Assembly: GCA_964507075.1 (NCBI GenBank)
Contig: CAZDOL010000001.1
Location: forward strand, 43,040-75,039
Source of the DNA: an uncultured Gammaproteobacteria bacterium
Lineage (GTDB): Bacteria > Patescibacteriota > Patescibacteriia > UBA2591 > UBA6264
Length of the DNA stretch: 32,000 nucleotides
Reading direction: 5' to 3'
The notes beneath the pieces are model-generated. The model was not told the DNA's origin and did no database searches. It saw nothing but the letters and a program-made list of their open reading frames with translations. How positions within the stretch are numbered: position 1 is the first letter of the stretch; the number at the start of each line of letters is the position of its first letter. Shown here piece by piece: positions 1,318-28,054 of the stretch. The position numbers and the translations under genes are program-made.

Positions 1318-1953
1318 CAAAATACCGAGGGGGATAATATTCCACTGCAAATTAAACCTCACAATACTATTATACAAACCGTGAAGTAAGAAAGCCCAAA
1401 AAAGACCGAGTAAGGGAAGATATCTTGAATATTTGGGATTAAATTTGACTAATCCCCAATAATACCCAATGATTCCTCCTGTTAAAAAATGAATTAATGT
1501 TGTGGTCAATCCCCTAAGCAAAATAAGGCTTGTGCCAGACCATATATTCGGAGACAAAAAACCATAAAGGATATTTTCACTAAAGGCAAACCCTAAACCT
1601 AAAGTCATGCCATAAATAAAACCATCCCTAATTTGATTAAAATGTTGAGCTCGATAAATTCCCAAACGAAAAATAACATATTTTGCCAATTCTTCAAATA
1701 GACCATCAATTAAAAAAGAACAGAATAATATCATCAAAATTGGACCTAAAATTAAATTCTTTTCACTCCAATCAGTTAAATTGCCCGTAATCAACATTAA
1801 AGGGATGGTAACTAAACATCCCAACAAAAAAACTCTAAAAATTTGCCCAGCTGGTTCTGGGGCCGAACGATCTAATCTTAAGCAAACCAAAAGCCATATT
1901 CCAATGGGCAAAGCGCTGAATAATAAATAAATTAAAAAAATTTGATAATTCAT
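1264..1953 (-). CDS. PrsW-family intramembrane protease-like membrane protein
   Basis: 229-aa polytopic membrane ORF with FEELAKY (EExxK-like) and HGLYN (HxxxN) motifs remembered from the PrsW family. Assignment is by motif memory only. Confidence 0.55.
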   Translation of the reverse strand: MNYQIFLIYLLFSALPIGIWLLVCLRLDRSAPEPAGQIFRVFLLGCLVTIPLMLITGNLTDWSEKNLILGPILMILFCSFLIDGLFEELAKYVIFRLGIYRAQHFNQIRDGFIYGMTLGLGFAFSENILYGFLSPNIWSGTSLILLRGLTTTLIHFLTGGIIGYYWGLVKFNPKYSRYLPLLGLFWAFLLHGLYNSIVRFNLQWNIIPLGILLIGIYVVILRRIKRMPD

Positions 1954-1977
1954 AGCATCTTTAATGCTACCTCAACT

Positions 1978-2916
1978 ATGAAAAAAAATAAACCCCCATT
2001 AATAATCATTTGTGGACCAACTGGCTCGGGCAAAAGTTCTCTTGCTTTAAAATTGGCCAAAGGATGTTCAATAAAAAATCAAAATGTTGAAATTATATCC
2101 GCGGACAGCAGGGCTATTTATAAAGGAATGGACATTGGCACTGCCAAGACATTGCCAAGCGATAATAACGGAATCACGCATCACATGATTGACATTGTTG
2201 ACCCAAGTCAAAAATTTACCGTAGCTTTATTTAAAGAAAGGGCCACAAAAATTATTAAAAAAATCCATCAACAAAAAAGAATACCCTTTCTTGTTGGCGG
2301 CACAGGATTATATATCAGCGCCATTGTTGACAACTTAACAATCCCTAAAGTTAAACCAGATGAAAAAATCAGAGCTAAAATGGAAAAAGAAATCAATAAT
2401 AAGGGCCTAGATTTTGTCTGGCAAAAATTATTAAAAATAGATCCACAAGCCAAACACTTTGTGCAAAAAGAAAATCCTCGTCGAGTGATTAGAGCCATAG
2501 AAGTTTGTTTAAAAACAGGACAACCCTTTTCTCAACTACGAACTAAAGCCCAACCAAAATTTGAAACCCTACAAATCGGCCTTAAAACAGAAAGAACAAA
2601 ACTATATTCTCAAATTAATCAAAGGGTAGAACAAATGATTAAAAATGGATTAGTGAAAGAAGTTAGAGAATTGATTAAAAAATATCCCGCATCTAATCCA
2701 GGTTTGACCAGCATCGCTTATCAAGAAATCATATTATATCTGGAAAATAAGATTACACTACAAGAAGCAATTGATTTAATTAAAAAAAATACGCGCCATT
2801 ACGCACGTCGTCAAATAACTTGGTTCAAGAAAGATAAACGCATTCATTGGGTTGCTACATATTCCCAAGCAAATCAACTAATCAAAAATTTTCTGCTTCA
2901 CCAATCAAGAAACTGA
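1978..2916 (+). CDS. miaA: tRNA dimethylallyltransferase
   Basis: P-loop GPTGSGKS close to the N-terminus, and a conserved TRHYARRQITWF C-terminal region. The ORF is open from 1942, but the ATG at 1978 (MKKNKPPLIIICGPTGSGKS) gives the canonical N-terminus. Ends in TGA. Confidence 0.9.
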   Translation: MKKNKPPLIIICGPTGSGKSSLALKLAKGCSIKNQNVEIISADSRAIYKGMDIGTAKTLPSDNNGITHHMIDIVDPSQKFTVALFKERATKIIKKIHQQKRIPFLVGGTGLYISAIVDNLTIPKVKPDEKIRAKMEKEINNKGLDFVWQKLLKIDPQAKHFVQKENPRRVIRAIEVCLKTGQPFSQLRTKAQPKFETLQIGLKTERTKLYSQINQRVEQMIKNGLVKEVRELIKKYPASNPGLTSIAYQEIILYLENKITLQEAIDLIKKNTRHYARRQITWFKKDKRIHWVATYSQANQLIKNFLLHQSRN

Positions 2917-2927
2917 ACACCCTAACA

Positions 2928-2958
2928 AAAAGTTTGGACACCGAGTGTCCAAACTTTT
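2928..2958. repeat. REP-like palindrome, variant TGGACAC (AAAAGTTTGGACAC-CGA-GTGTCCAAACTTTT), at a bidirectional-terminator position
   Basis: Perfect 14-bp stem and 3-nt loop, with an A-run on the left and a T-run on the right. Lies between convergent miaA and the transposase-like gene and abuts the latter's stop codon. Identical copy at 25465..25497. Confidence 0.9.
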
Positions 2959-3642
2959 CTACTCTAATAGAAATCTCTTAATTCGCTTATTTTCCTTTAT
3001 TCTCTTTAAAGAATCTTTAGCAAACCCTTTATAAGCCTCCGCATTGCCAAATTGGTCCAATACAATATCCTTTTCACAAAAACCTTTCTTATTTCTATTG
3101 TTTTTATTAGAATCACTCTCAACGTATTCGTCCCAGCTTGATTTAAAAAGTTCAGTGGCCGAGCCACTGAACTTTTCTAAATTATGTACCTTATAATTTA
3201 AATTAATATAAGTACTTAAGTGCAATAAATATTCATTAGAACCTATATGAATCGCTTGGTATTTCCCTTGACACAATGACCCGCTCCGTTTATATTTTTT
3301 ATTAAAATATTCTGTATATCCAGTGCCTAACCTATGCATAAATTTTTGAATCCCCTTGTCAACTAATTGTTTCAAAATAAAATGATAATGATTCGGATTT
3401 AAGCAATAACAAACAAAATTAACCAATTTTTTCTTTTTGGAAAGTTCAGTGGCCGAGCCACTGAACTTTTTTCTCAATCTCTTTGCTTCATAAATACTAT
3501 CAATTGGATTCATAGTATTAAATTCTTCCATGCTCAAAAAAAATCTATTTAAATCTTCTTGGCATTCAAAAATTATACGCTTATCTACTCCACGATTATA
3601 GATATGATAATATTCGTCATTAACAAATTTAACTTTTCTCAT
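2959..3642 (-). CDS. IS200/RayT-like HUH (Y1) tyrosine transposase (REP-associated tyrosine transposase-like)
   Basis: 227 aa. YHIYNRG N-terminus, HUH motif NPNHYHFIL, FMHRLGTGYTEYFNKKY...G, tyrosine motif STYINLN, and a WSS-like SSWDEY. Flanked and internally punctuated by palindromes of one family. Confidence 0.75.
   Translation of the reverse strand: MRKVKFVNDEYYHIYNRGVDKRIIFECQEDLNRFFLSMEEFNTMNPIDSIYEAKRLRKKFSGSATELSKKKKLVNFVCYCLNPNHYHFILKQLVDKGIQKFMHRLGTGYTEYFNKKYKRSGSLCQGKYQAIHIGSNEYLLHLSTYINLNYKVHNLEKFSGSATELFKSSWDEYVESDSNKNNRNKKGFCEKDIVLDQFGNAEAYKGFAKDSLKRIKENKRIKRFLLE
3146..3176. repeat. REP-like palindrome, variant CAGTGGC, inside the transposase-like CDS (encodes KFSGSATELF)
   Basis: AAAAGTTCAGTGGC-CGA-GCCACTGAACTTTT, a perfect 14-bp stem. 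The same about 30 nt recurs at 3441..3469. Confidence 0.9.
3441..3469. repeat. REP-like palindrome, variant CAGTGGC, inside the transposase-like CDS (encodes KFSGSATELS)
   Basis: AAAGTTCAGTGGC-CGA-GCCACTGAACTTT, a perfect 13-bp stem, read in the same frame as the copy at 3146. Confidence 0.9.
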
Positions 3643-3673
3643 ATATATATTTATATCTCTTTTAAAGACTAAT

Positions 3674-3702
3674 AAAGTTTGGTGACCGAGCCACCAAACT
3701 TT
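3674..3702. repeat. REP-like palindrome, variant TGGTGAC/GCCACCA, directly after the gatB stop codon
   Basis: AAAGTTTGGTGAC-CGA-GCCACCAAACTTT with one A/C mismatch in the stem. Lies between the gatB stop (3703) and the transposase-like gene start (3642). Confidence 0.85.
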
Positions 3703-5202
3703 TTATAAAAATTTTGTTAATAACTTCTTGATTAAATCTGGGCTTATTTGCCCTTTTGTTTTTTTAACTGTTTGGCCTATTAAAAATTGAATGGCATTAG
3801 GATGACCCTTTTTGATTTTATCCACTATTTCAGAATTATTTTTAATAACATCTTGAACAATAACTTCTATCTTTTCTGATTCAATAATTTCCAGAGAACC
3901 AAACTCTAACAACAAAGAGCCAGCATCTTGTCCTGTTTGAAACATTTTTTTCAAAATTTTTCGACCTAAAATATTAGATAACTTTTTCTGATATATTAAA
4001 ATAATAAACTCAGTAAAATTTTCACAAGAAACACTGGATTCTTTTTTATTAGATTCTTGTGAAAAAACTAAATAATAATTGATGAACCAATTGGCAATTA
4101 ATCTAATTATTTTTTTCTTATTTCTTTGCCATATCTCTGGTTCACTAGCGTCCATTCCTTCACAAGAACTAATCCAGTCTTGCATTTTTTTGATAACCTC
4201 TTCTATGAAATACAATCGAGTTGGCAATGCAGTCAATATTCTAATTTCATCTTCTGAAAAGCAATATTTTTTTCGCCAACGCTTCCTTTGCTGAGCTGGC
4301 AATTCGGGCAAAGATTTGCTTAATTTTTTAATATCAAATGGAAATTCTTTGGATTTGGTAAAAAAAACTGGTAGATCTGGCTCCTTAAAATATCTATAAT
4401 CTTTGGTCTTTTCTTTACTTCTCTGCTCAACTGTAATTCCTTTTTGTGCATCCCAACCACGCGTTATCTCTATTTTCTGCACTCTGTTATCGCGCCACAG
4501 CTCAGTCTGTCTTTTGATTTCATACCTTAGAGCATCTTCTACAGCCTTAAATGAGTTAAGGTTTTTTATCTCTGTTTTGGGATAAAGATTATCTCCGTTG
4601 TTTTCTGGTCTTAAAGAAATGTTGACATCACACCTCATCTGCCCATTTTCCATTTCTGCATTGGAAACATTTAATGCCCGAGCTATCTCCTGTAATTCTT
4701 GTAAAAAAAATTTAGCCTGAGAAGGACTCTCTATATCCGGTTTAGTTACTATTTCAGCCAAAGGCACTCCTGCGCGATTAAAATCCAATAAGCTATAACC
4801 TTCTTTTGAATGCAGTAATTTAGCAGTATCTTCCTCAATATGTATTCTCTCTAAATTAATTCTTTGTCCCTTGATGTCCAAATGTCCTCCAATAATTAAA
4901 GGAGAATAATATTGACTAATCTGATATCCTTTGGGCAAGTCTGGATAAAAATAATTTTTACGATCAAACCAAAAACTTTCCGCTACCTCTCCCTTTAATG
5001 CTAACCCTAAAAGCAAAACTTTTTCTATTACTTTTTTGTTTAAAACTGGCAAAACCCCAGGATGACCCAGGCAAGTTGGACAAACATTAATGTTGGGTAA
5101 AACACCCTGAACCTTATTCAAGCAAGAACAGAATAATTTGCTCTTTGTGTTAAGTTCCAAATGAATTTCTAAGCCAATAATAGACTTTAAGTTAAGATGC
5201 AT
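3703..5202 (-). CDS. gatB: Asp/Glu-tRNA amidotransferase subunit B
   Basis: 499 aa. IGLEIHLELNTKSKLFCSC...CPTCLGHPGVLPVLN and RCDVNISL signature regions, with a C-terminal YqeY-like tail. Confidence 0.9.
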   Translation of the reverse strand: MHLNLKSIIGLEIHLELNTKSKLFCSCLNKVQGVLPNINVCPTCLGHPGVLPVLNKKVIEKVLLLGLALKGEVAESFWFDRKNYFYPDLPKGYQISQYYSPLIIGGHLDIKGQRINLERIHIEEDTAKLLHSKEGYSLLDFNRAGVPLAEIVTKPDIESPSQAKFFLQELQEIARALNVSNAEMENGQMRCDVNISLRPENNGDNLYPKTEIKNLNSFKAVEDALRYEIKRQTELWRDNRVQKIEITRGWDAQKGITVEQRSKEKTKDYRYFKEPDLPVFFTKSKEFPFDIKKLSKSLPELPAQQRKRWRKKYCFSEDEIRILTALPTRLYFIEEVIKKMQDWISSCEGMDASEPEIWQRNKKKIIRLIANWFINYYLVFSQESNKKESSVSCENFTEFIILIYQKKLSNILGRKILKKMFQTGQDAGSLLLEFGSLEIIESEKIEVIVQDVIKNNSEIVDKIKKGHPNAIQFLIGQTVKKTKGQISPDLIKKLLTKFL

Positions 5203-6568
5203 TTTTAGCGGTTAAAATTACGGGAATAGTCATTAATATAATTTGTAAATCAAATAATAAAGACCAGTTCTCTATATAATAAATATCTAATTTTGCTTCT
5301 TCTTCAAAAGATAATTTTGAACGACCAGAAATTTGGGGTAAACCAGTTAACCCAGGTTTAATGGCTAATAACTGCTTGTGATGTAAGGCATAATTAGCTA
5401 TTTCTTGGGGTTCGTGAGGACGCGGACCAACCAAGCTCATTTCTCCATTGATAATATTAAATAACTGAGGTAATTCATCCAAACTTGTTTTGCGCAAAAA
5501 ACGACCAAAACGAGTTATTCGCGGATCATTTTTCATTTTAAACAAGGGCCCCTCCCTTTCATTATGTTTTAATAACTCCTTCTTGAGTTTTTGTGCGTTA
5601 GGAATCATAGAGCGAAATTTATAAAGCTTAAAAGGATGATTTTTTTGACCAATTCTTTTAAGGCTAACAAAAACCGGTCCGCGAGAATCAATCCTAATAA
5701 TAACAACCAAAATTAAAAAAACTGGAGACAAAAGTATTAAAGCCAAAAAAGCGATGATTAAATCAAAAAAACGTTTGACAATTCTTCCCCAACCACAAAG
5801 AGCTGTTTGTCCTAAAGTAATAATTGGAACGCCATTAATTGCTTCCATCTGCACATTACTTGCTAAAGAACCAAAAATGTCAGCCGCATATCTAAAAATA
5901 ATTTGATGCTCCTGGCAAAAATCAATAATTTTCAATACTTCTGAGCGCTCTAAAAGAGGGTCTGTTTGGATAATTTGATTTATCTCTCTTGTCCGCCCCA
6001 ACCATTTCTCTTGTAAATTTGAAAATGATTTGGGATTACCTAAAACTTGATACCCAACCCCAGAATTATTTTGTAAATAATTAATAATTTGTTCTGTGGT
6101 TTTGTCTTTTCCTAATATTAAAACTGGTTCTAGATTTTTTCCCTTTCTATAAGCTGACAATTCTAAAACATGAATCAACGCCCTTCCCATACTAACAAAA
6201 ATAATAGAAACTATCCAAGCTGCTAAAATAATAAAACGGGAAGAAAAATATTCTCCTTTAAAAAAAATAAAAGCCACAATAAGCATTATACCCATAGAAC
6301 AAGCTAAAAATATTTTAGGAACTTCTTTGGAAAACCTGCGTTTCAATCCCAGATTATAAAGACCAGATAAAATAAAAATGCCTAGCCAAAGCAAAGCAAT
6401 TAAAAGAATTGAAATAAAATATTCCTTAAATGGAATTTCGTAAATAACCGGTCGCAAGCTTGTGAATGCAGTAAAACGTAAGAAATAAACAAAAACTCCG
6501 GACAAAATCAACATAAGATAATCTGCGGGTACTAAAAAAGTAGCAAAAAATAAATCATTTCTTTTCAT
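5192..6568 (-). CDS. Polyprenyl-phosphate glycosyl-1-phosphate transferase (bacterial sugar transferase, WbaP/EpsB-like)
   Basis: 458 aa. Multiple N-terminal TM helices plus a C-terminal catalytic region: KRFFDLI...LSPVF, GPVFV, RFGRFLRKTSLDELPQLFNIINGEMSLVGPRP. Overlaps gatB by 11 nt. Confidence 0.85.
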   Translation of the reverse strand: MKRNDLFFATFLVPADYLMLILSGVFVYFLRFTAFTSLRPVIYEIPFKEYFISILLIALLWLGIFILSGLYNLGLKRRFSKEVPKIFLACSMGIMLIVAFIFFKGEYFSSRFIILAAWIVSIIFVSMGRALIHVLELSAYRKGKNLEPVLILGKDKTTEQIINYLQNNSGVGYQVLGNPKSFSNLQEKWLGRTREINQIIQTDPLLERSEVLKIIDFCQEHQIIFRYAADIFGSLASNVQMEAINGVPIITLGQTALCGWGRIVKRFFDLIIAFLALILLSPVFLILVVIIRIDSRGPVFVSLKRIGQKNHPFKLYKFRSMIPNAQKLKKELLKHNEREGPLFKMKNDPRITRFGRFLRKTSLDELPQLFNIINGEMSLVGPRPHEPQEIANYALHHKQLLAIKPGLTGLPQISGRSKLSFEEEAKLDIYYIENWSLLFDLQIILMTIPVILTAKNAS

Positions 6569-6599: not shown

Positions 6600-6625
6600 A
6601 ATCCCAGAGCATAAGCTCGGGGATT
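6600..6625 (-). terminator. Intrinsic terminator downstream of RNase P RNA
   Basis: On the minus strand, hairpin AATCCCCGAGC-TTAT-GCTCTGGGATT is followed by TTTTGTTTTATTTTTT. Confidence 0.6.
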
Positions 6626-6629
6626 AAGT

Positions 6630-7006
6630 ATTTTAGATAAACCTATAAGCCGAATTCTGTTCCGTTAATTTTACAAAAAACGGGATGACTATTTATCTAG
6701 ACTTAATGTTACCATTAAACTCTAACGACCTACCGAAATTTGGTCTTGCACTCAAATAAGGATTTAGCCGTTTCATCGTGACCTTTGTTCTATAATCACG
6801 CTCACCCTCTTAAATAAATTTGAGAGGGTGCCTCAACTTTTGCAAGTTTTGGCGTCTCTGTTCGCACCTCTACTGATTTCGTCTAAAATAGATAAAATCA
6901 GCGACGGGAATTACCCGCTATCCTTCTCCTTGTCGCCAAGGGAGTGTTCGGACTTTCCTCTTAACAACCCATAAGGGCTATCAAGCAGCCATCTAGTTTA
7001 TCTACT
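6630..7006 (-). ncRNA. rnpB: RNase P RNA (bacterial type)
   Basis: A 473-nt ORF-free gap. The minus strand carries GAGGAAAGTCCGAAC (P4 5' strand / CR-I) and ACAGAATTCGGCTTATAGG (CR-V, P4 3' strand). Terminal P1 pairs TAGATAAAC (about 7004) with GTTTATCTA (about 6634). Ends are approximate (+/-10 nt). Confidence 0.85.
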
Positions 7007-14806: not shown

Positions 14807-15076
14807 TTATTTCTTGCCTTTTCCCCCTTTTTCCTCTTTTGTGTCCTTAAAGACCTTTTTTATATCTTGAGCGCCATCCCGAACTTCATCTTTCATCTCT
14901 TTAATCTCATGAGCTGCTTTTTTGGCAATATCTAAAAATTTATCTTTAGCTTTTCCTATCTTTTCTTTTAATTCGCCCCTAGTTTTTGTTCCAGATTCTT
15001 TAGCGAAAAGCAATCCTAAAATAGCGCCAAAAATACTGCCCAAAAAGCCGGCTTTAAAAATTTTTTTAATAGACAT
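14807..15076 (-). CDS. YtxH-like small membrane-anchored protein
   Basis: 89 aa. N-terminal glycine-rich TM helix (GFLGSIFGAILGLLFA) followed by a charged helical tail. Confidence 0.55.
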   Translation of the reverse strand: MSIKKIFKAGFLGSIFGAILGLLFAKESGTKTRGELKEKIGKAKDKFLDIAKKAAHEIKEMKDEVRDGAQDIKKVFKDTKEEKGGKGKK

Positions 15077-24651: not shown

Positions 24652-24726
24652 GCCCCTATAGTTCAACGGATAGAACGAGAGACTTCTAATCTCTAGATAG
24701 AGGTTCGATTCCTCTTGGGGGTACCA
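24652..24726 (+). tRNA. tRNA-Arg (anticodon TCT), CCA encoded
   Basis: Hand-folded cloverleaf. Acceptor GCCCCTA/TGGGGGT (two G-T wobbles), D arm GTTC-AACGGATA-GAAC, anticodon arm AGAGA-CTTCTAA-TCTCT, T arm AGAGG-TTCGATT-CCTCT, discriminator A, CCA. Confidence 0.9.
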
Positions 24727-25313: not shown

Positions 25314-25388
25314 GGCGACCTTGGTGTAGGAGTAGCACAAAAGCCTGTGGAGCTTTCGGCAGGGGTGCAAATCCCCTAGGTCGCCCCA
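25314..25388 (+). tRNA. tRNA-His (anticodon GTG) with encoded G-1:C73 and CCA; atypical T loop
   Basis: G-1, acceptor GCGACCT/AGGTCGC, D arm GTGT-AGGAGTA-GCAC, anticodon arm AAAGC-CTGTGGA-GCTTT, T arm AGGGG-TGCAAAT-CCCCT, discriminator C, CCA. Starts 10 nt after the HNH stop codon. Confidence 0.8.
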
Positions 25389-25393
25389 TAAAA

Positions 25394-25418
25394 ACATCTC
25401 TTTTTTAGAGGTGTTTTT
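25394..25418 (+). terminator. Intrinsic terminator after tRNA-His
   Basis: ACATCTCT-TTTTT-AGAGGTGT hairpin (one G-T pair) followed by TTTT. Confidence 0.65.
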
Positions 25419-25464: not shown

Positions 25465-25497
25465 AAAAAGTTTGGACACCGAGTGTCCAAACTTTTT
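25465..25497. repeat. REP-like palindrome, variant TGGACAC, identical to the copy at 2928..2958
   Basis: AAAAAGTTTGGACAC-CGA-GTGTCCAAACTTTTT. Lies between the tRNA locus (+) and the convergent minus-strand gene ending at 25520. Confidence 0.9.
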
Positions 25498-25519: not shown

Positions 25520-26941
25520 TTAAAAAATAGGGGTTCCTTCAGCGTAAGATTTGATTTCTTCCAATTTAATTTCTACTACATCTGAAAAACTAAAATTTAA
25601 TTTTTCTAAAATCTGAGGTGAAGTTACCCATCTCTTTATCTTTTGGTCCAATAAATAAACCTTCTCTCCTCCCTCTGCTCTGATTAAATAATTTTGAGGC
25701 AAAGCCCTGATAATTTCCTGACCAACAGTAACTATTTCATCAAACTTACCATAAGCATCAACCATTGCTTGGCTTAACATATGTCTAATAGTACCATTTT
25801 GGGAAACCAAATAAACCTTTTCGTCTCCCTCAGCCCGAATAAATTTTACCAAAGGCATTTCTTGGATAGTATGCCCTAAACTAACAATACCATCCCAAAT
25901 ACCCCCAACACCCTCAAAAACATTCGGAGCATTAAGCCATAAACGAAAACCATTTAAATTAAGATAAACCTTTTCGTCGTCTTTTTCTTTAATAAACTGA
26001 ACATCACTATCCTGTAAATCCCCTTCTTCCTCAAAAAAACGAATAATTGGATCGGGCTCATATGGCACAATTGAAGAAATACAAAACACTGAAGATTCGC
26101 AATTAACATTAAAGGTTTCTTCTTTCCAAGAATCATTTAAATATTTGGATTCTGCTTGTTCTAATTTTGTCCAAAGCAAAAAATTATTTCCTGATTTATT
26201 GGTTAAATATCCATATTTATAGTCGTCATCTACTCCTTCTGGCTGGTATTTGAATCCATATTTATAATTTGTCCTATAATGCAAAGTTGCTGAATCCAAG
26301 ATATTCTCTAAAGCGTTCCATTGATTCTCTTTTTCCGATTCCCGAATACTAACAATTGGATAATGACCAAAATATTTATAATACTTATCTAAAACTTTCT
26401 TCATTCTGTTTAAATCTGATGCCCTTTTCTTATCTCTATTTTTGGGTCCATTTTCAGAAAGATCTTTTAATTCTGTTCTTAAATATAATTCATCAATCTC
26501 TGGAGATAGATTAGGATTGGATGTAGCTAAAAATATCTTAAGACGCATTTTTTTGGTAATAGTATGGGGTTCAAAGGAACTGCCCCAGGTTAAAGGATAT
26601 TCTCTAATATCGTCGTCAAAGCTAATAAAAGCTAAAACATGAGTTCCTGCTGGCTGGCTATAAACACCCGTAAGAGTCAATGAATAAATATGAGGATTAA
26701 AACGAATATCATCTGTCCATAAAACCCCAGAAGAAACAAAACCCTCTTCTTGCTCTTCTAAAGTTACATTACCTCTTTCCCAATGAATTGTGCTGTAATC
26801 CCAATCAATAATTCCAGATGAATTGAAATCATATTTTTTTTCAGCATACTTGATGGGAATCGGTCCCAAAGCTAAAAGCGCCCGCGCAGGGATTATAGAA
26901 ATAAAAAAAATGCTTAAAATAATTATCTTAAATCGTCTCAT
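25520..26941 (-). CDS. Secreted protein of unknown function with three C-terminal ~50-aa repeats
   Basis: Start placed at the ATG at 26941 (MRRFKIIILSIFFISIIPARALLA signal peptide). The mid-region NRDKKRASDLNRMKKVLDKYYKYFGHYP resembles the conserved helix of pilin/pseudopilin globular domains. C-terminal repeats carry (I/L)(K/R)xExxEKVYL. Confidence 0.6.
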   Translation of the reverse strand: MRRFKIIILSIFFISIIPARALLALGPIPIKYAEKKYDFNSSGIIDWDYSTIHWERGNVTLEEQEEGFVSSGVLWTDDIRFNPHIYSLTLTGVYSQPAGTHVLAFISFDDDIREYPLTWGSSFEPHTITKKMRLKIFLATSNPNLSPEIDELYLRTELKDLSENGPKNRDKKRASDLNRMKKVLDKYYKYFGHYPIVSIRESEKENQWNALENILDSATLHYRTNYKYGFKYQPEGVDDDYKYGYLTNKSGNNFLLWTKLEQAESKYLNDSWKEETFNVNCESSVFCISSIVPYEPDPIIRFFEEEGDLQDSDVQFIKEKDDEKVYLNLNGFRLWLNAPNVFEGVGGIWDGIVSLGHTIQEMPLVKFIRAEGDEKVYLVSQNGTIRHMLSQAMVDAYGKFDEIVTVGQEIIRALPQNYLIRAEGGEKVYLLDQKIKRWVTSPQILEKLNFSFSDVVEIKLEEIKSYAEGTPIF

Positions 26942-26977
26942 ATTTAATATTAAAGCAAAAAATAGGCCTTTCGTCAA

Positions 26978-27113
26978 CCCCCACACCAAACAGCAATACA
27001 TTTTTAATGCGAGCCGTTATTTAACGGTTTAATTTATTTATTCGTTGCAAATTTATTTTGCTTCAAAAAAGCTTAAAATGCAAGAGAGCATTATTGCTGT
27101 TATGGTGTGGGGG
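26978..27113. repeat. Long inverted repeat (21/22-nt arms) enclosing 93 nt in the intergenic region
   Basis: CCCCCACACCAAACAGCAATA (26978..26998) versus the reverse complement of 27092..27113, CCCCCACACCATAACAGCAATA (one-nt indel). Confidence 0.8.
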
Positions 27114-27163: not shown

Positions 27164-27964
27164 TTAATTTCTAAACTTTTTAATTATCAAAATAATTAAA
27201 ATTATTCCCAAAAATATAGCGCTAACTATAAAATATGGTTTCAAAGATTCAAAATTAATAACACGAGTATGGCCTGAACCTTCTAAAGTTAAAAATCCTA
27301 AACTTGCTTGTGGCAAAATATCGGGTTCAATTGCAATAAAATTAATGTCTTGGTCGCTACGGGGCAAAAGCCTTAACTCATCATTGCTTTGATTTAATAT
27401 CCCTATGATTTCTAAATTATCTCCCTCTTGAATAATCCCTTTGTTAATTTTTGCGTATTCTTTAATATAAATTGTTATCTCTGATTGCCCGTTGCTGATA
27501 AAAATCCGCGAACCAGTTCTTTCTATAACCTCACCCTGAATCTTGAGCAATTTACCAACCAAACTATAATTAATCTCTTTAATCTCAACTACTTGTGGCT
27601 CAATTATCAACTGGCGCTCCAAAATTCCAATATCCTCTTGGCTTTTAATATTAATTCTCTTTTCTTCTCTTGCTTGAGAAACAACACCCTGAACTGCAAT
27701 TTTATCACCTCTTTTTAATTTTGGAAAATCTTTGTAATAGGAGTAAATTTGAACTCCATTAATATAAAAAAACTGGAGTCCTAAAACCCCAGGTTCAACT
27801 ATTACTATTCCTTCTGTTTTAACCGTTCTGCCAACATCTAATTCTTTAATGTTCTCTGGCGAAACATATTGAAAATCAACGGCAAAAACTTGATTACAAA
27901 ATATTAAAAATATCAACAAGAAAACAAAAAAACCAACAATTCTTATTTTTTTAATATTTGTCAT
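27164..27964 (-). CDS. Membrane-anchored extracytoplasmic protein with two OB-fold-like repeats
   Basis: 266 aa. N-terminal signal/TM and C-terminal TM (FIVSAIFLGIILIILII). Two internally similar modules (VGRTVKTEGIVIV...GDKIAVQGVV and VGKLLKIQGEVIE...GDNLEIIGIL) resemble the OB folds of extracellular nucleases and DNA-uptake proteins. Function not established. Confidence 0.45.
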   Translation of the reverse strand: MTNIKKIRIVGFFVFLLIFLIFCNQVFAVDFQYVSPENIKELDVGRTVKTEGIVIVEPGVLGLQFFYINGVQIYSYYKDFPKLKRGDKIAVQGVVSQAREEKRINIKSQEDIGILERQLIIEPQVVEIKEINYSLVGKLLKIQGEVIERTGSRIFISNGQSEITIYIKEYAKINKGIIQEGDNLEIIGILNQSNDELRLLPRSDQDINFIAIEPDILPQASLGFLTLEGSGHTRVINFESLKPYFIVSAIFLGIILIILIIKKFRN

Positions 27965-27982
27965 ATATATTTTTTTGAAAAC

Positions 27983-28007
27983 TTTTTGGAGACTTAGTCT
28001 CCAAAAA
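27983..28007. terminator. Palindromic hairpin with A/T-run flanks (bidirectional terminator-like) after the giant gene
   Basis: TTTTTGGAGAC-TTA-GTCTCCAAAAA, an 11-bp stem. Located 88 nt downstream of the stop at 28095. Confidence 0.55.
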
Positions 28008-28054
28008 AAATTCTCTCCAATCTATAACATCTTAAAAAATAATAGACCCAAAAT

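Follow-up and report, generated by a model that had tools for sequence, protein, structure and literature searches.

A REPtron-like unit of Patescibacteria: a RAYT-like gene with four cognate hairpins, two of them conserved within its own coding sequence and evolving in concert

Known systems that pair repetitive extragenic palindromic (REP) sequences with REP-associated tyrosine transposases (RAYTs) comprise hundreds of diverged palindrome copies and offer no simple read-out; to our knowledge, the copying of REPs or REPINs by RAYTs has never been directly shown. REPtrons, including those found in genomes without large REP families, and the co-evolution of RAYTs with REPs have been described (PMC2817692, PMC3733652, PMC5581495). 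Host genes, too, are known to contain palindromic repeats in frame, which are translated as additional loop peptides; examples are the Rickettsia palindromic elements (RPE) and REPs within repair genes (PMC3733652). Here we analyse a 32,000-nt stretch of DNA (hereafter the window; contig CAZDOL010000001.1, positions 43,040 to 75,039) from an ultra-small Patescibacteria bacterium. It carries a REPtron-like unit consisting of a RAYT-like gene and four cognate hairpins, in which conserved intragenic copies evolve in concert.

The gene, identified by its open reading frame (ORF), a Pfam match and a fold match, encodes a Y1 HUH (RAYT-like) single-strand DNA endonuclease/transposase and lies on the reverse strand at 2959..3642. 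Its neighbour on the upstream side is gatB (3703..5202, reverse strand), while miaA (1942..2916, forward strand) converges on it from the other side. The predicted product of 227 amino acids contains EYYHIYNRG, the HUH motif NPNHYHFIL (H85 and H87) and STYINLN with the tyrosine Y145, which bears out the initial annotation of this DNA. That annotation also placed palindromes at 2928-2958 and 3674-3702. Both are present, the upstream one 31 nt before the ATG; the shared motif it wrote for them (N7-CCGAG-N7) has zero matches in the window. The true pattern is the 29-nt AAAGTT-N7-CGA-N7-AACTTT, of which there are five exact copies, at 2929, 3147, 3441, 3674 and 25467, where 0.42 would be expected with two mismatches allowed; five copies were reached in none of 100 shuffles. 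Folding energies of the five copies, taken as single-stranded DNA, range from -10.8 to -16.4 kcal/mol (z-scores of -6 to -9), and all five share one orientation.

Four of these hairpins belong to the unit. The upstream hairpin (AAAGTTTGGTGAC-CGA-GCCACCAAACTTT, 3674..3702) has one A.C mismatch and directly adjoins the gatB stop codon. The downstream hairpin (AAAAGTTTGGACAC-CGA-GTGTCCAAACTTTT, 2928..2958), a perfect 14-bp stem, adjoins the stop codon of the RAYT-like gene, before the convergent miaA. The two remaining hairpins lie in frame within the ORF: intragenic hairpin 1 (3441..3469) has a perfect 13-bp stem and encodes K59-FSGSATE-L67, and intragenic hairpin 2 (3146..3176) has a perfect 14-bp stem and encodes K157-FSGSATE-L165. 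They are identical over 30 nt, share the same frame and stand 294 nt (98 codons) apart. Both translate to KFSGSATEL; the initial annotation had missed these two copies, which are the unusual part of the unit. The codons of the palindrome pair as reverse complements about the central codon. Hairpin 1 corresponds to a loop between a helix and the strand leading to the HUH motif; hairpin 2 comes directly past the helix with the catalytic tyrosine and is followed, in the lineage of the window, by TTTTT on the coding strand. The fifth copy, identical to the downstream hairpin, is dispersed (25465..25497) and has a tRNA gene on one side and the 3' end of an ORF (25520-27001, reverse strand) on the other.

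The same layout recurs widely. More than 4,000 relatives of the protein were found at 55-78% identity; all named ones are from Patescibacteria, some of them labelled RayT by JGI, and 202 representatives in a library clustered at 50% score below 1e-30. In 79 loci from GTDB genomes scanned for hairpins, we counted 74 homologous gene units, a hairpin being defined for these counts as a stem of at least 8 bp. An upstream hairpin, starting 37-60 nt before the ATG, is present in 66 of the 74 units and a downstream hairpin within a few nt of the stop codon in 59, while the intragenic site 1 (codon ~59) is occupied in 57 and site 2 (codon ~157) in 47. The palindrome centre keeps a constant codon phase at site 1 (47/53) as at site 2 (43/44). 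The family consensus is ACTTGG-N5-loop-N5-CCAAGT, with outer 6 bp that are 75-94% conserved, variable inner 5 bp, a loop likewise free to vary, and unconserved flanks; it shows no GTAG or CGTC head. In paralogues that are more distant (27-42% identity), site 1 and the flanks likewise hold a cognate hairpin of the paralogue's own. No intragenic hairpins were found in the control genes, namely E. coli rayT, a Rhodospirillum plasmid gene and a Pseudoalteromonas gene. The arrangement with four hairpins goes back to the ancestor of a large Patescibacteria family.

Some units show further arrangements. Locus L059 has a second gene (reverse strand, ~5291-4600), a distant paralogue with an in-frame cognate hairpin at gene nt 266; because this hairpin sits just past the HUH strand, the two canonical sites are not the only ones that an intragenic copy can occupy. 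Some genes have head-to-head doublets or fused double palindromes of the family hairpin beside them (L083 at ~5894-5959; L013 at 5823-5858 and 6524-6559; L052, L031 and L080), the doublet of L083 forming a 29-bp composite stem reminiscent of REPIN doublets. Short matches to a local hairpin arm (TGGAAACT...AGTTTCCA) at 14859, 14885 and 15539 of L055 lie inside gatB and, with arms of 8 nt, may be due to chance.

The hairpins of one unit resemble each other far more than those of other units. Within a unit, 58% of hairpin pairs agree in all of the inner 5 nt, compared with 1.1% of pairs drawn from different units, and the six site combinations do not differ in this. Among units in the same gatB-X-miaA setting, TTTGGACAC occupies all four sites in L111, TTTAGGAGC all four in L082 and AATGAGAGGC all four in L084. 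L083 carries TTGAGAAGC together with a downstream copy identical to the intragenic copies of the window, and the window itself has TTCAGTGGC at both intragenic sites, TTTGGACAC downstream and near-TTTGGTGGC upstream. Since these syntenic orthologues bear different variants, the copies have been replaced in place. Units that share a genome also differ in variant, as in the L018 pair located 6 kb apart. Among 13 within-unit pairs of imperfect hairpins, 8 share the exact mismatch, either directly or as its exact reverse complement (L011, L049, L069, L074), which shows that a hairpin is copied as a whole between sites, in either orientation, and that the copies are not restored one by one by compensatory mutation. 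Identity among copies ends at the palindrome ends. Orientation, as read from the asymmetric loop, is approximately random between sites (upstream/downstream pairs: 20 direct, 12 inverted and 15 different). What keeps the four copies of a unit alike is thus that the entire hairpin of ~23-30 nt is copied again and again, in either orientation. The gene evolves faster than its neighbours, with 59-79% nucleotide identity in the gene region versus mostly 80-88% in the flanks; RAYT genes likewise evolve faster than their neighbours and co-vary with REPs (PMC2817692). Module swapping between hairpins was also considered: pairwise identities of the N-terminal, core and C-terminal modules are weakly correlated (r 0.24-0.29), and there are no clear chimeras.

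Because the two peptides are identical within each protein (KFRSSAPKL twice, KFGGSASKL twice or LGNPVSK twice, depending on the protein), the repeated KFSGSATEL could be taken for a protein motif of which the DNA palindromes are a by-product. We find this barely credible. The same sequence occurs in the non-coding flanks and at dispersed sites, which already contradicts such a reading; the peptides vary freely between orthologues, their codons pair as reverse complements, and the site-1 peptide forms a low-confidence loop in the structural model presented below. Annotators should be aware that the 9-aa repeat peptide of these "transposases" stems from the DNA and is no protein motif.

A stronger case can be made for the intragenic hairpins as selected regulatory sites, acting by mRNA attenuation or by operator-like self-binding to keep the nuclease low, with the copies matching one another through selection for recognition. 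Their position and phase are conserved over a deep radiation, even in the paralogues of 27-42% identity, the upstream hairpin separates the ATG from the preceding gene, and hairpin 2 is followed by its T-run on the coding strand in the lineage of the window; hairpins have moreover been proposed to down-regulate RAYT and IS200 (PMC3733652). Against this, G.T pairs make up 11 of 63 stem mismatches, which is no enrichment and argues for DNA and against selection on an RNA fold, nor is there the strand or orientation preference expected of an RNA element. Shared mismatches indicate copying and not independent compensatory selection, a quarter to a third of the units have lost intragenic hairpins while their genes are intact, and the T-run is absent in most lineages. 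We regard selected regulatory sites as a rather unlikely explanation, which would also be compatible, as an added effect, with overwriting of the hairpins by the encoded enzyme. An RNA element at the site was considered separately and is unlikely, as there is no G.T excess, no orientation bias relative to the flanking genes (12 vs 14) and no Rfam family at the site.

The protein itself was compared with known enzymes by sequence and by fold. It matches Pfam PF01797 (Y1_Tnp) over residues 58-147 with 30.9 bits against a cut-off of 23, in agreement with the assignment first proposed, and H85-Y-H87 and Y145 are invariant in 120 homologues. An AlphaFold model built from these 120 homologues (pLDDT 79, pTM 0.78) places Y145 in a helix at 136-147 and the site-1 peptide in its lowest-confidence loop (residues 62-69). 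The top Foldseek match in the PDB is 4er8_A, E. coli TnpA_REP/RayT with a REP hairpin (E=3.9e-4, target-normalised TM 0.58), followed by the TnpA proteins of IS608 and ISDra2; a comparison of the family sequence profile with PDB sequences gave nothing useful, and fold comparison alone worked. The protein also has an extra C-terminal domain. The NCBIfam equivalog REP_Tyr_transpos (NF047646) scores 20.3 bits, below its cut-off of 80, and BLASTP against E. coli RayT found no similarity. An NP(L/V)(R/K)xG motif beside the catalytic tyrosine and a conserved N-terminal threonine are features of RAYTs (PMC2817692); both are absent from the window protein, which has YINLNYKVH and YHIYNRG at these places, while distant Patescibacteria paralogues do have a RAYT-like YIHLNP. 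The protein is a Y1 HUH enzyme with a RAYT-like fold, outside the curated RAYT family. The RAYT/REP reading of the initial annotation was right in kind, as seen from the Y1_Tnp match, the fold match to 4er8, the flanking cognate hairpins, their co-variation with a fast-evolving gene and the dispersal of the palindrome in related populations. It does not extend to a RAYT in the strict sense, given the sub-threshold equivalog score, the BLASTP result, the missing GTAG head and flanking copies that are inconsistently inverted.

The unit is chromosomal and vertically inherited. Synteny is kept in orthologues whose GatB proteins are 79-84% identical and whose RAYT-like proteins are 67-72% identical, and the gene is intact at the gatB-miaA site in at least eight related populations; in distant species the neighbourhood is unconserved. 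At the same site, locus L171 retains a decaying remnant (5001-5242) in which ~60 N-terminal codons interrupted by stop codons are joined to the last codons by an internal deletion, and both remaining flanking hairpins are degenerate. A hairpin-to-hairpin deletion was considered for L171 and rejected, as the deletion joins two SL(x)K-coding stretches and not two hairpins. The gene is absent from the site in L172. The outgroup L173 (GatB 60% identical) has no gene either and carries a solitary, degenerate family-like hairpin at 5004-5022, ACTGCGGAGCTCAGCTCCTAATT, which by eye matches 19 of 23 positions of the variant ACTTGGGAGCTCAGCTCCCAAGT. No intact family hairpin was found in these three loci without an intact gene, a small sample of 25 kb in total.

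An active insertion sequence of the IS200/IS605 type, with the flanking hairpins as its ends and recently inserted between gatB and miaA, would fit a 0.75-kb unit with a hairpin at each end, its absence from the same site in L172 and L173 and the differing neighbourhoods of distant species. We nevertheless consider it very improbable, in view of a position unchanged among orthologues with GatB only 79-84% identical, a remnant in L171 that decays in place with no clean excision, and a protein of 227 aa with its extra C-terminal domain. Paralogues within a genome are ~50% identical with no near-identical copies, and in plasmid and phage collections no close relatives were detected, only distant partial matches on plasmids and none in phages. 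The absence of near-identical paralogues and of plasmid or phage relatives, together with the pattern of gain and loss, points to a domesticated and occasionally lost REPtron rather than an active insertion sequence.

Beyond the gene, the hairpins behave as a low-copy dispersed extragenic REP family. Related populations have the same palindrome at tens of unique extragenic sites. A metagenome scan with AAAGTTNRGNNNCCGAGNNNCYNAACTTT yielded 82 loci and, together with the window, 105 family palindromes, the gene being present in only 7 loci. For 78 copies the flank reaches at least 70 nt on each side; every one of them lies in different surroundings, and nothing is held in common beyond ~31 nt. 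Some variants recur across samples, TGGAAGC being the commonest. Nine copies of the metagenome set are intragenic: eight in the RAYT-like gene and the ninth in a doubtful ORF. There is one dispersed copy in 39 kb of the window's own genome, and across GTDB genomes ~3 hairpins per 0.75-kb unit contrast with ~1 cognate copy per 35 kb of flank, a more than 100-fold enrichment at the gene.

Several dispersed copies have structured surroundings. About a dozen are joined to a conserved ~40-nt GC-rich module, CCGCTCGGAAACGCAGACTGGGAGCGGGCTGGGGAAGGCA, with which they form a composite repeat (L127, L128, L131, L135, L138, L142 with two, L152 with two, L155, L089 and L115). At 11 of the 78 copies a tandem duplicate of one arm only restarts at or near the loop; these include L094 at 572, L104 at 1749, L128 at 6868, L134 at 1903, L135 at 2572, L141 at 10146, L146 at 1785, L152 at 7065 and L158 at 106, the last of which repeats the unit ATCCAGAGCTTCCAAACTTTT. 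Such one-arm duplicates may be traces left by nicks, or by a switch of strand, at the tip of the hairpin. The window also contains a second, intergenic palindrome type, TTTTTGGAGACTTAGTCTCCAAAAA, at 27983-28007 (with imperfect longer arms at 27964-28026), which has the outer design of the family hairpin and an inner stem resembling the hairpin cassettes that L007 and L163, loci from other species, carry. A second RAYT-like gene at another place in the genome may have it as its cognate.

The initial annotation had further proposed that every extragenic family member sits at a terminator site and that the hairpins may double as terminators. As to placement, all three extragenic window copies (2929, 3674 and 25467) do follow a gene 3' end, but they are only three. 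In the wider set, 50 copies are in tandem regions, 16 in convergent and 7 in divergent ones. Convergent regions are ~twofold enriched (p=0.004); divergent regions are not significantly avoided, with 7 of 73 copies against 12.7% expected from intergenic length, and ~87% of the intergenic length in any case lies downstream of a gene. The positional bias is weak; the same bias is seen in published REPs (PMC3733652).

On this reading the hairpins would chiefly be the intrinsic terminators of a streamlined genome, merely maintained by the RAYT. In the lineage of the window they are flanked by an A-run and a T-run of 4-5 T, the latter partly paired in the stem, and in 17 of 66 extragenic copies no more than 2 nt separate the start from a stop codon, which, with the convergent enrichment, speaks for a role in termination. 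Outside this lineage the family consensus has no T-run. A scan with a terminator consensus flags one of the five window palindromes, a result that is not decisive since the stem itself takes in the T-run. Such a hairpin stands at only 3 gene ends in 32 kb, the copy at 25467 is adjoined by another canonical terminator-like hairpin, the distribution over orientation classes is near the prediction from intergenic length, and identical hairpins occur inside the ORF of the enzyme. As the chief function of the hairpins, termination is thus improbable. A terminator role is possible in the lineage of the window; it is not general.

As to the agent of the copying, we infer from the chemistry of the fold, the more than 100-fold enrichment at the gene, the paralogue-specific variants and the decay in L171 that it is the encoded enzyme. 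Probably, this Y1 enzyme works mostly in cis and writes over hairpin sites time and again, the two within loops of its own product among them. It would bind the hairpin as single-stranded DNA, and cut and rejoin single-stranded DNA at hairpins, chiefly beside its own gene. Each existing hairpin would be a landing site, overwritten again and again, which would explain the persistence of perfect palindromes inside the ORF; these are presumably tolerated because they lie in surface loops that bracket the catalytic core. A likely side effect would be that the hairpins within and beside the gene damp its expression, and some extragenic copies may help terminate transcription in the lineage of the window, with its A- and T-runs.

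Several points weigh against this account. Cutting and joining of the hairpins are ascribed to the protein from its fold and from its association with them, and the argument from a pseudogene comes from a single locus (L171). Copying of ~30 nt could arise from template switching at the replication fork, with the outer stems as microhomology and no enzyme, and the gene-proximal bias could be due in part to distance-dependent recombination rather than to a protein acting in cis. The unit of the window is heterogeneous, with three variants among its four sites, so homogenisation is incomplete. Finally, about a quarter to a third of the units are without one or both detectable intragenic hairpins while their catalytic motifs are intact, and the intragenic copies are hence not indispensable.

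Enzyme-independent homogenisation, by replication-linked template switching or short-patch gene conversion with the enzyme at most the original disperser, is thus a serious rival, although on balance we think it unlikely. Conserved outer stems of 6-9 nt on both sides would offer the microhomology; only close neighbours are copied, units 6 kb apart staying different; the lone-arm tandem duplicates at 11 of 78 dispersed copies resemble slippage or strand-switch products; and loop flipping is a known result of strand switching in palindromes. What such a process leaves unexplained is why only this gene family has such hairpins in its ORF, and why variants are paralogue-specific while one variant has spread to tens of distant unique sites. 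The hairpins have also decayed at one dead copy, that of L171.

Overwriting by the encoded enzyme can be extended, more speculatively, to a phylum-wide domesticated HUH hairpin "overwrite" drive. A hairpin of ~25 nt would be excised and re-inserted at any copy in either orientation, the sites in the enzyme's own ORF would be continually rewritten, and the in-frame pair of the same phase, one on each side of the catalytic core, may allow programmed in-frame loss of that 98-codon core as a built-in off-switch. We put this forward tentatively, as possible rather than probable. If true, a Y1 enzyme would here homogenise sequence site-specifically and from a template in a way that is new, and the gene would be the first known to carry and rewrite its own substrate within its coding sequence.

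Other features of the region include an RNase P RNA gene (6630-7004, reverse strand) and two tRNA genes on the forward strand (24652-24723 and 25315-25385). Conserved hairpins near 6600 and 6803 are located at or beside the RNase P RNA gene, that at 6803 inside it, and also occur in L082-L084. The tRNA gene preceding the 25467 copy has its own separate terminator-like hairpin at 25390-25418. A pair of genes for an MjaI-like restriction enzyme and an N6/N4 DNA methylase lies beside thrS in L001 (16255-17813), 7 kb past the left end of the window.

For the study of REP copying, the substrate is here cut down to four copies in 0.75 kb at fixed positions. Translation of two of these means that each switch leaves its trace in the protein as well as in the DNA, and Patescibacteria offer hundreds of natural replicates. 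One can thus test directly how the copying proceeds (by tract length, orientation and shared mismatches), whether it depends on the enzyme and what it costs the gene. It is also of note that ultra-small, streamlined genomes retain such a self-referential system of repeat and enzyme.

Neither the papers on REPs and RAYTs cited above (PMC2817692, PMC3733652, PMC5581495) nor full-text searches yielded a description of cognate REPs conserved inside a RAYT ORF, or of REP/RAYT systems in Patescibacteria. To judge from these sources, the intragenic, concertedly evolving cognate hairpins of a RAYT-like gene are new, while the REPtron kind to which the unit belongs is already known. Like the REPtrons of E. 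coli (RayT/YafM) and the RAYTs of Pseudomonas, the unit combines a Y1 HUH enzyme, closest in structure to RayT with a REP hairpin, and cognate hairpins on both sides of the gene, often straight after the stop codon. Hairpin and gene co-vary, the gene evolves faster, one to three copies are present per genome and inheritance is vertical; further copies of the hairpins are scattered outside genes, for the most part close to 3' ends. Unlike REPtrons, the family has two more cognate hairpins within the ORF, in frame and at conserved codons, whereas E. coli rayT is without an internal REP-like hairpin. It also differs in having no GTAG/CGTC tag, flanking copies that are inconsistently inverted and a low dispersal of ~1 per 35 kb.

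With the IS200/IS605 elements (TnpA of IS608 and ISDra2) the unit shares the catalytic fold and the HUH and tyrosine chemistry. Their subterminal hairpins, present at both ends and recognised as single-stranded DNA, can be likened to those of the unit, as can the hairpins by which IS200 damps expression of its transposase. Unlike these elements, the unit is not multicopy and mobile, it is syntenic across species, and its protein is larger with a C-terminal extension; its hairpins are perfect palindromes of variable orientation that also occur in coding sequence. In the lineage of the window, the hairpins further resemble bidirectional intrinsic terminators in that a stem containing GC has an A-run on one side and a T-run on the other and often follows directly on a stop codon; they differ from them in that the T-run is short and paired in the stem, is lacking in the wider family, and copies are found in an ORF. 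Finally, like RPE and intragenic REPs, the two inner hairpins are short palindromic repeats in frame within an ORF and are translated. RPE adorn many unrelated host genes, whereas here it is essentially only the gene of the presumed acting enzyme that is concerned, its sites are ancient and fixed, and the copies they hold evolve in concert with those that flank the gene.

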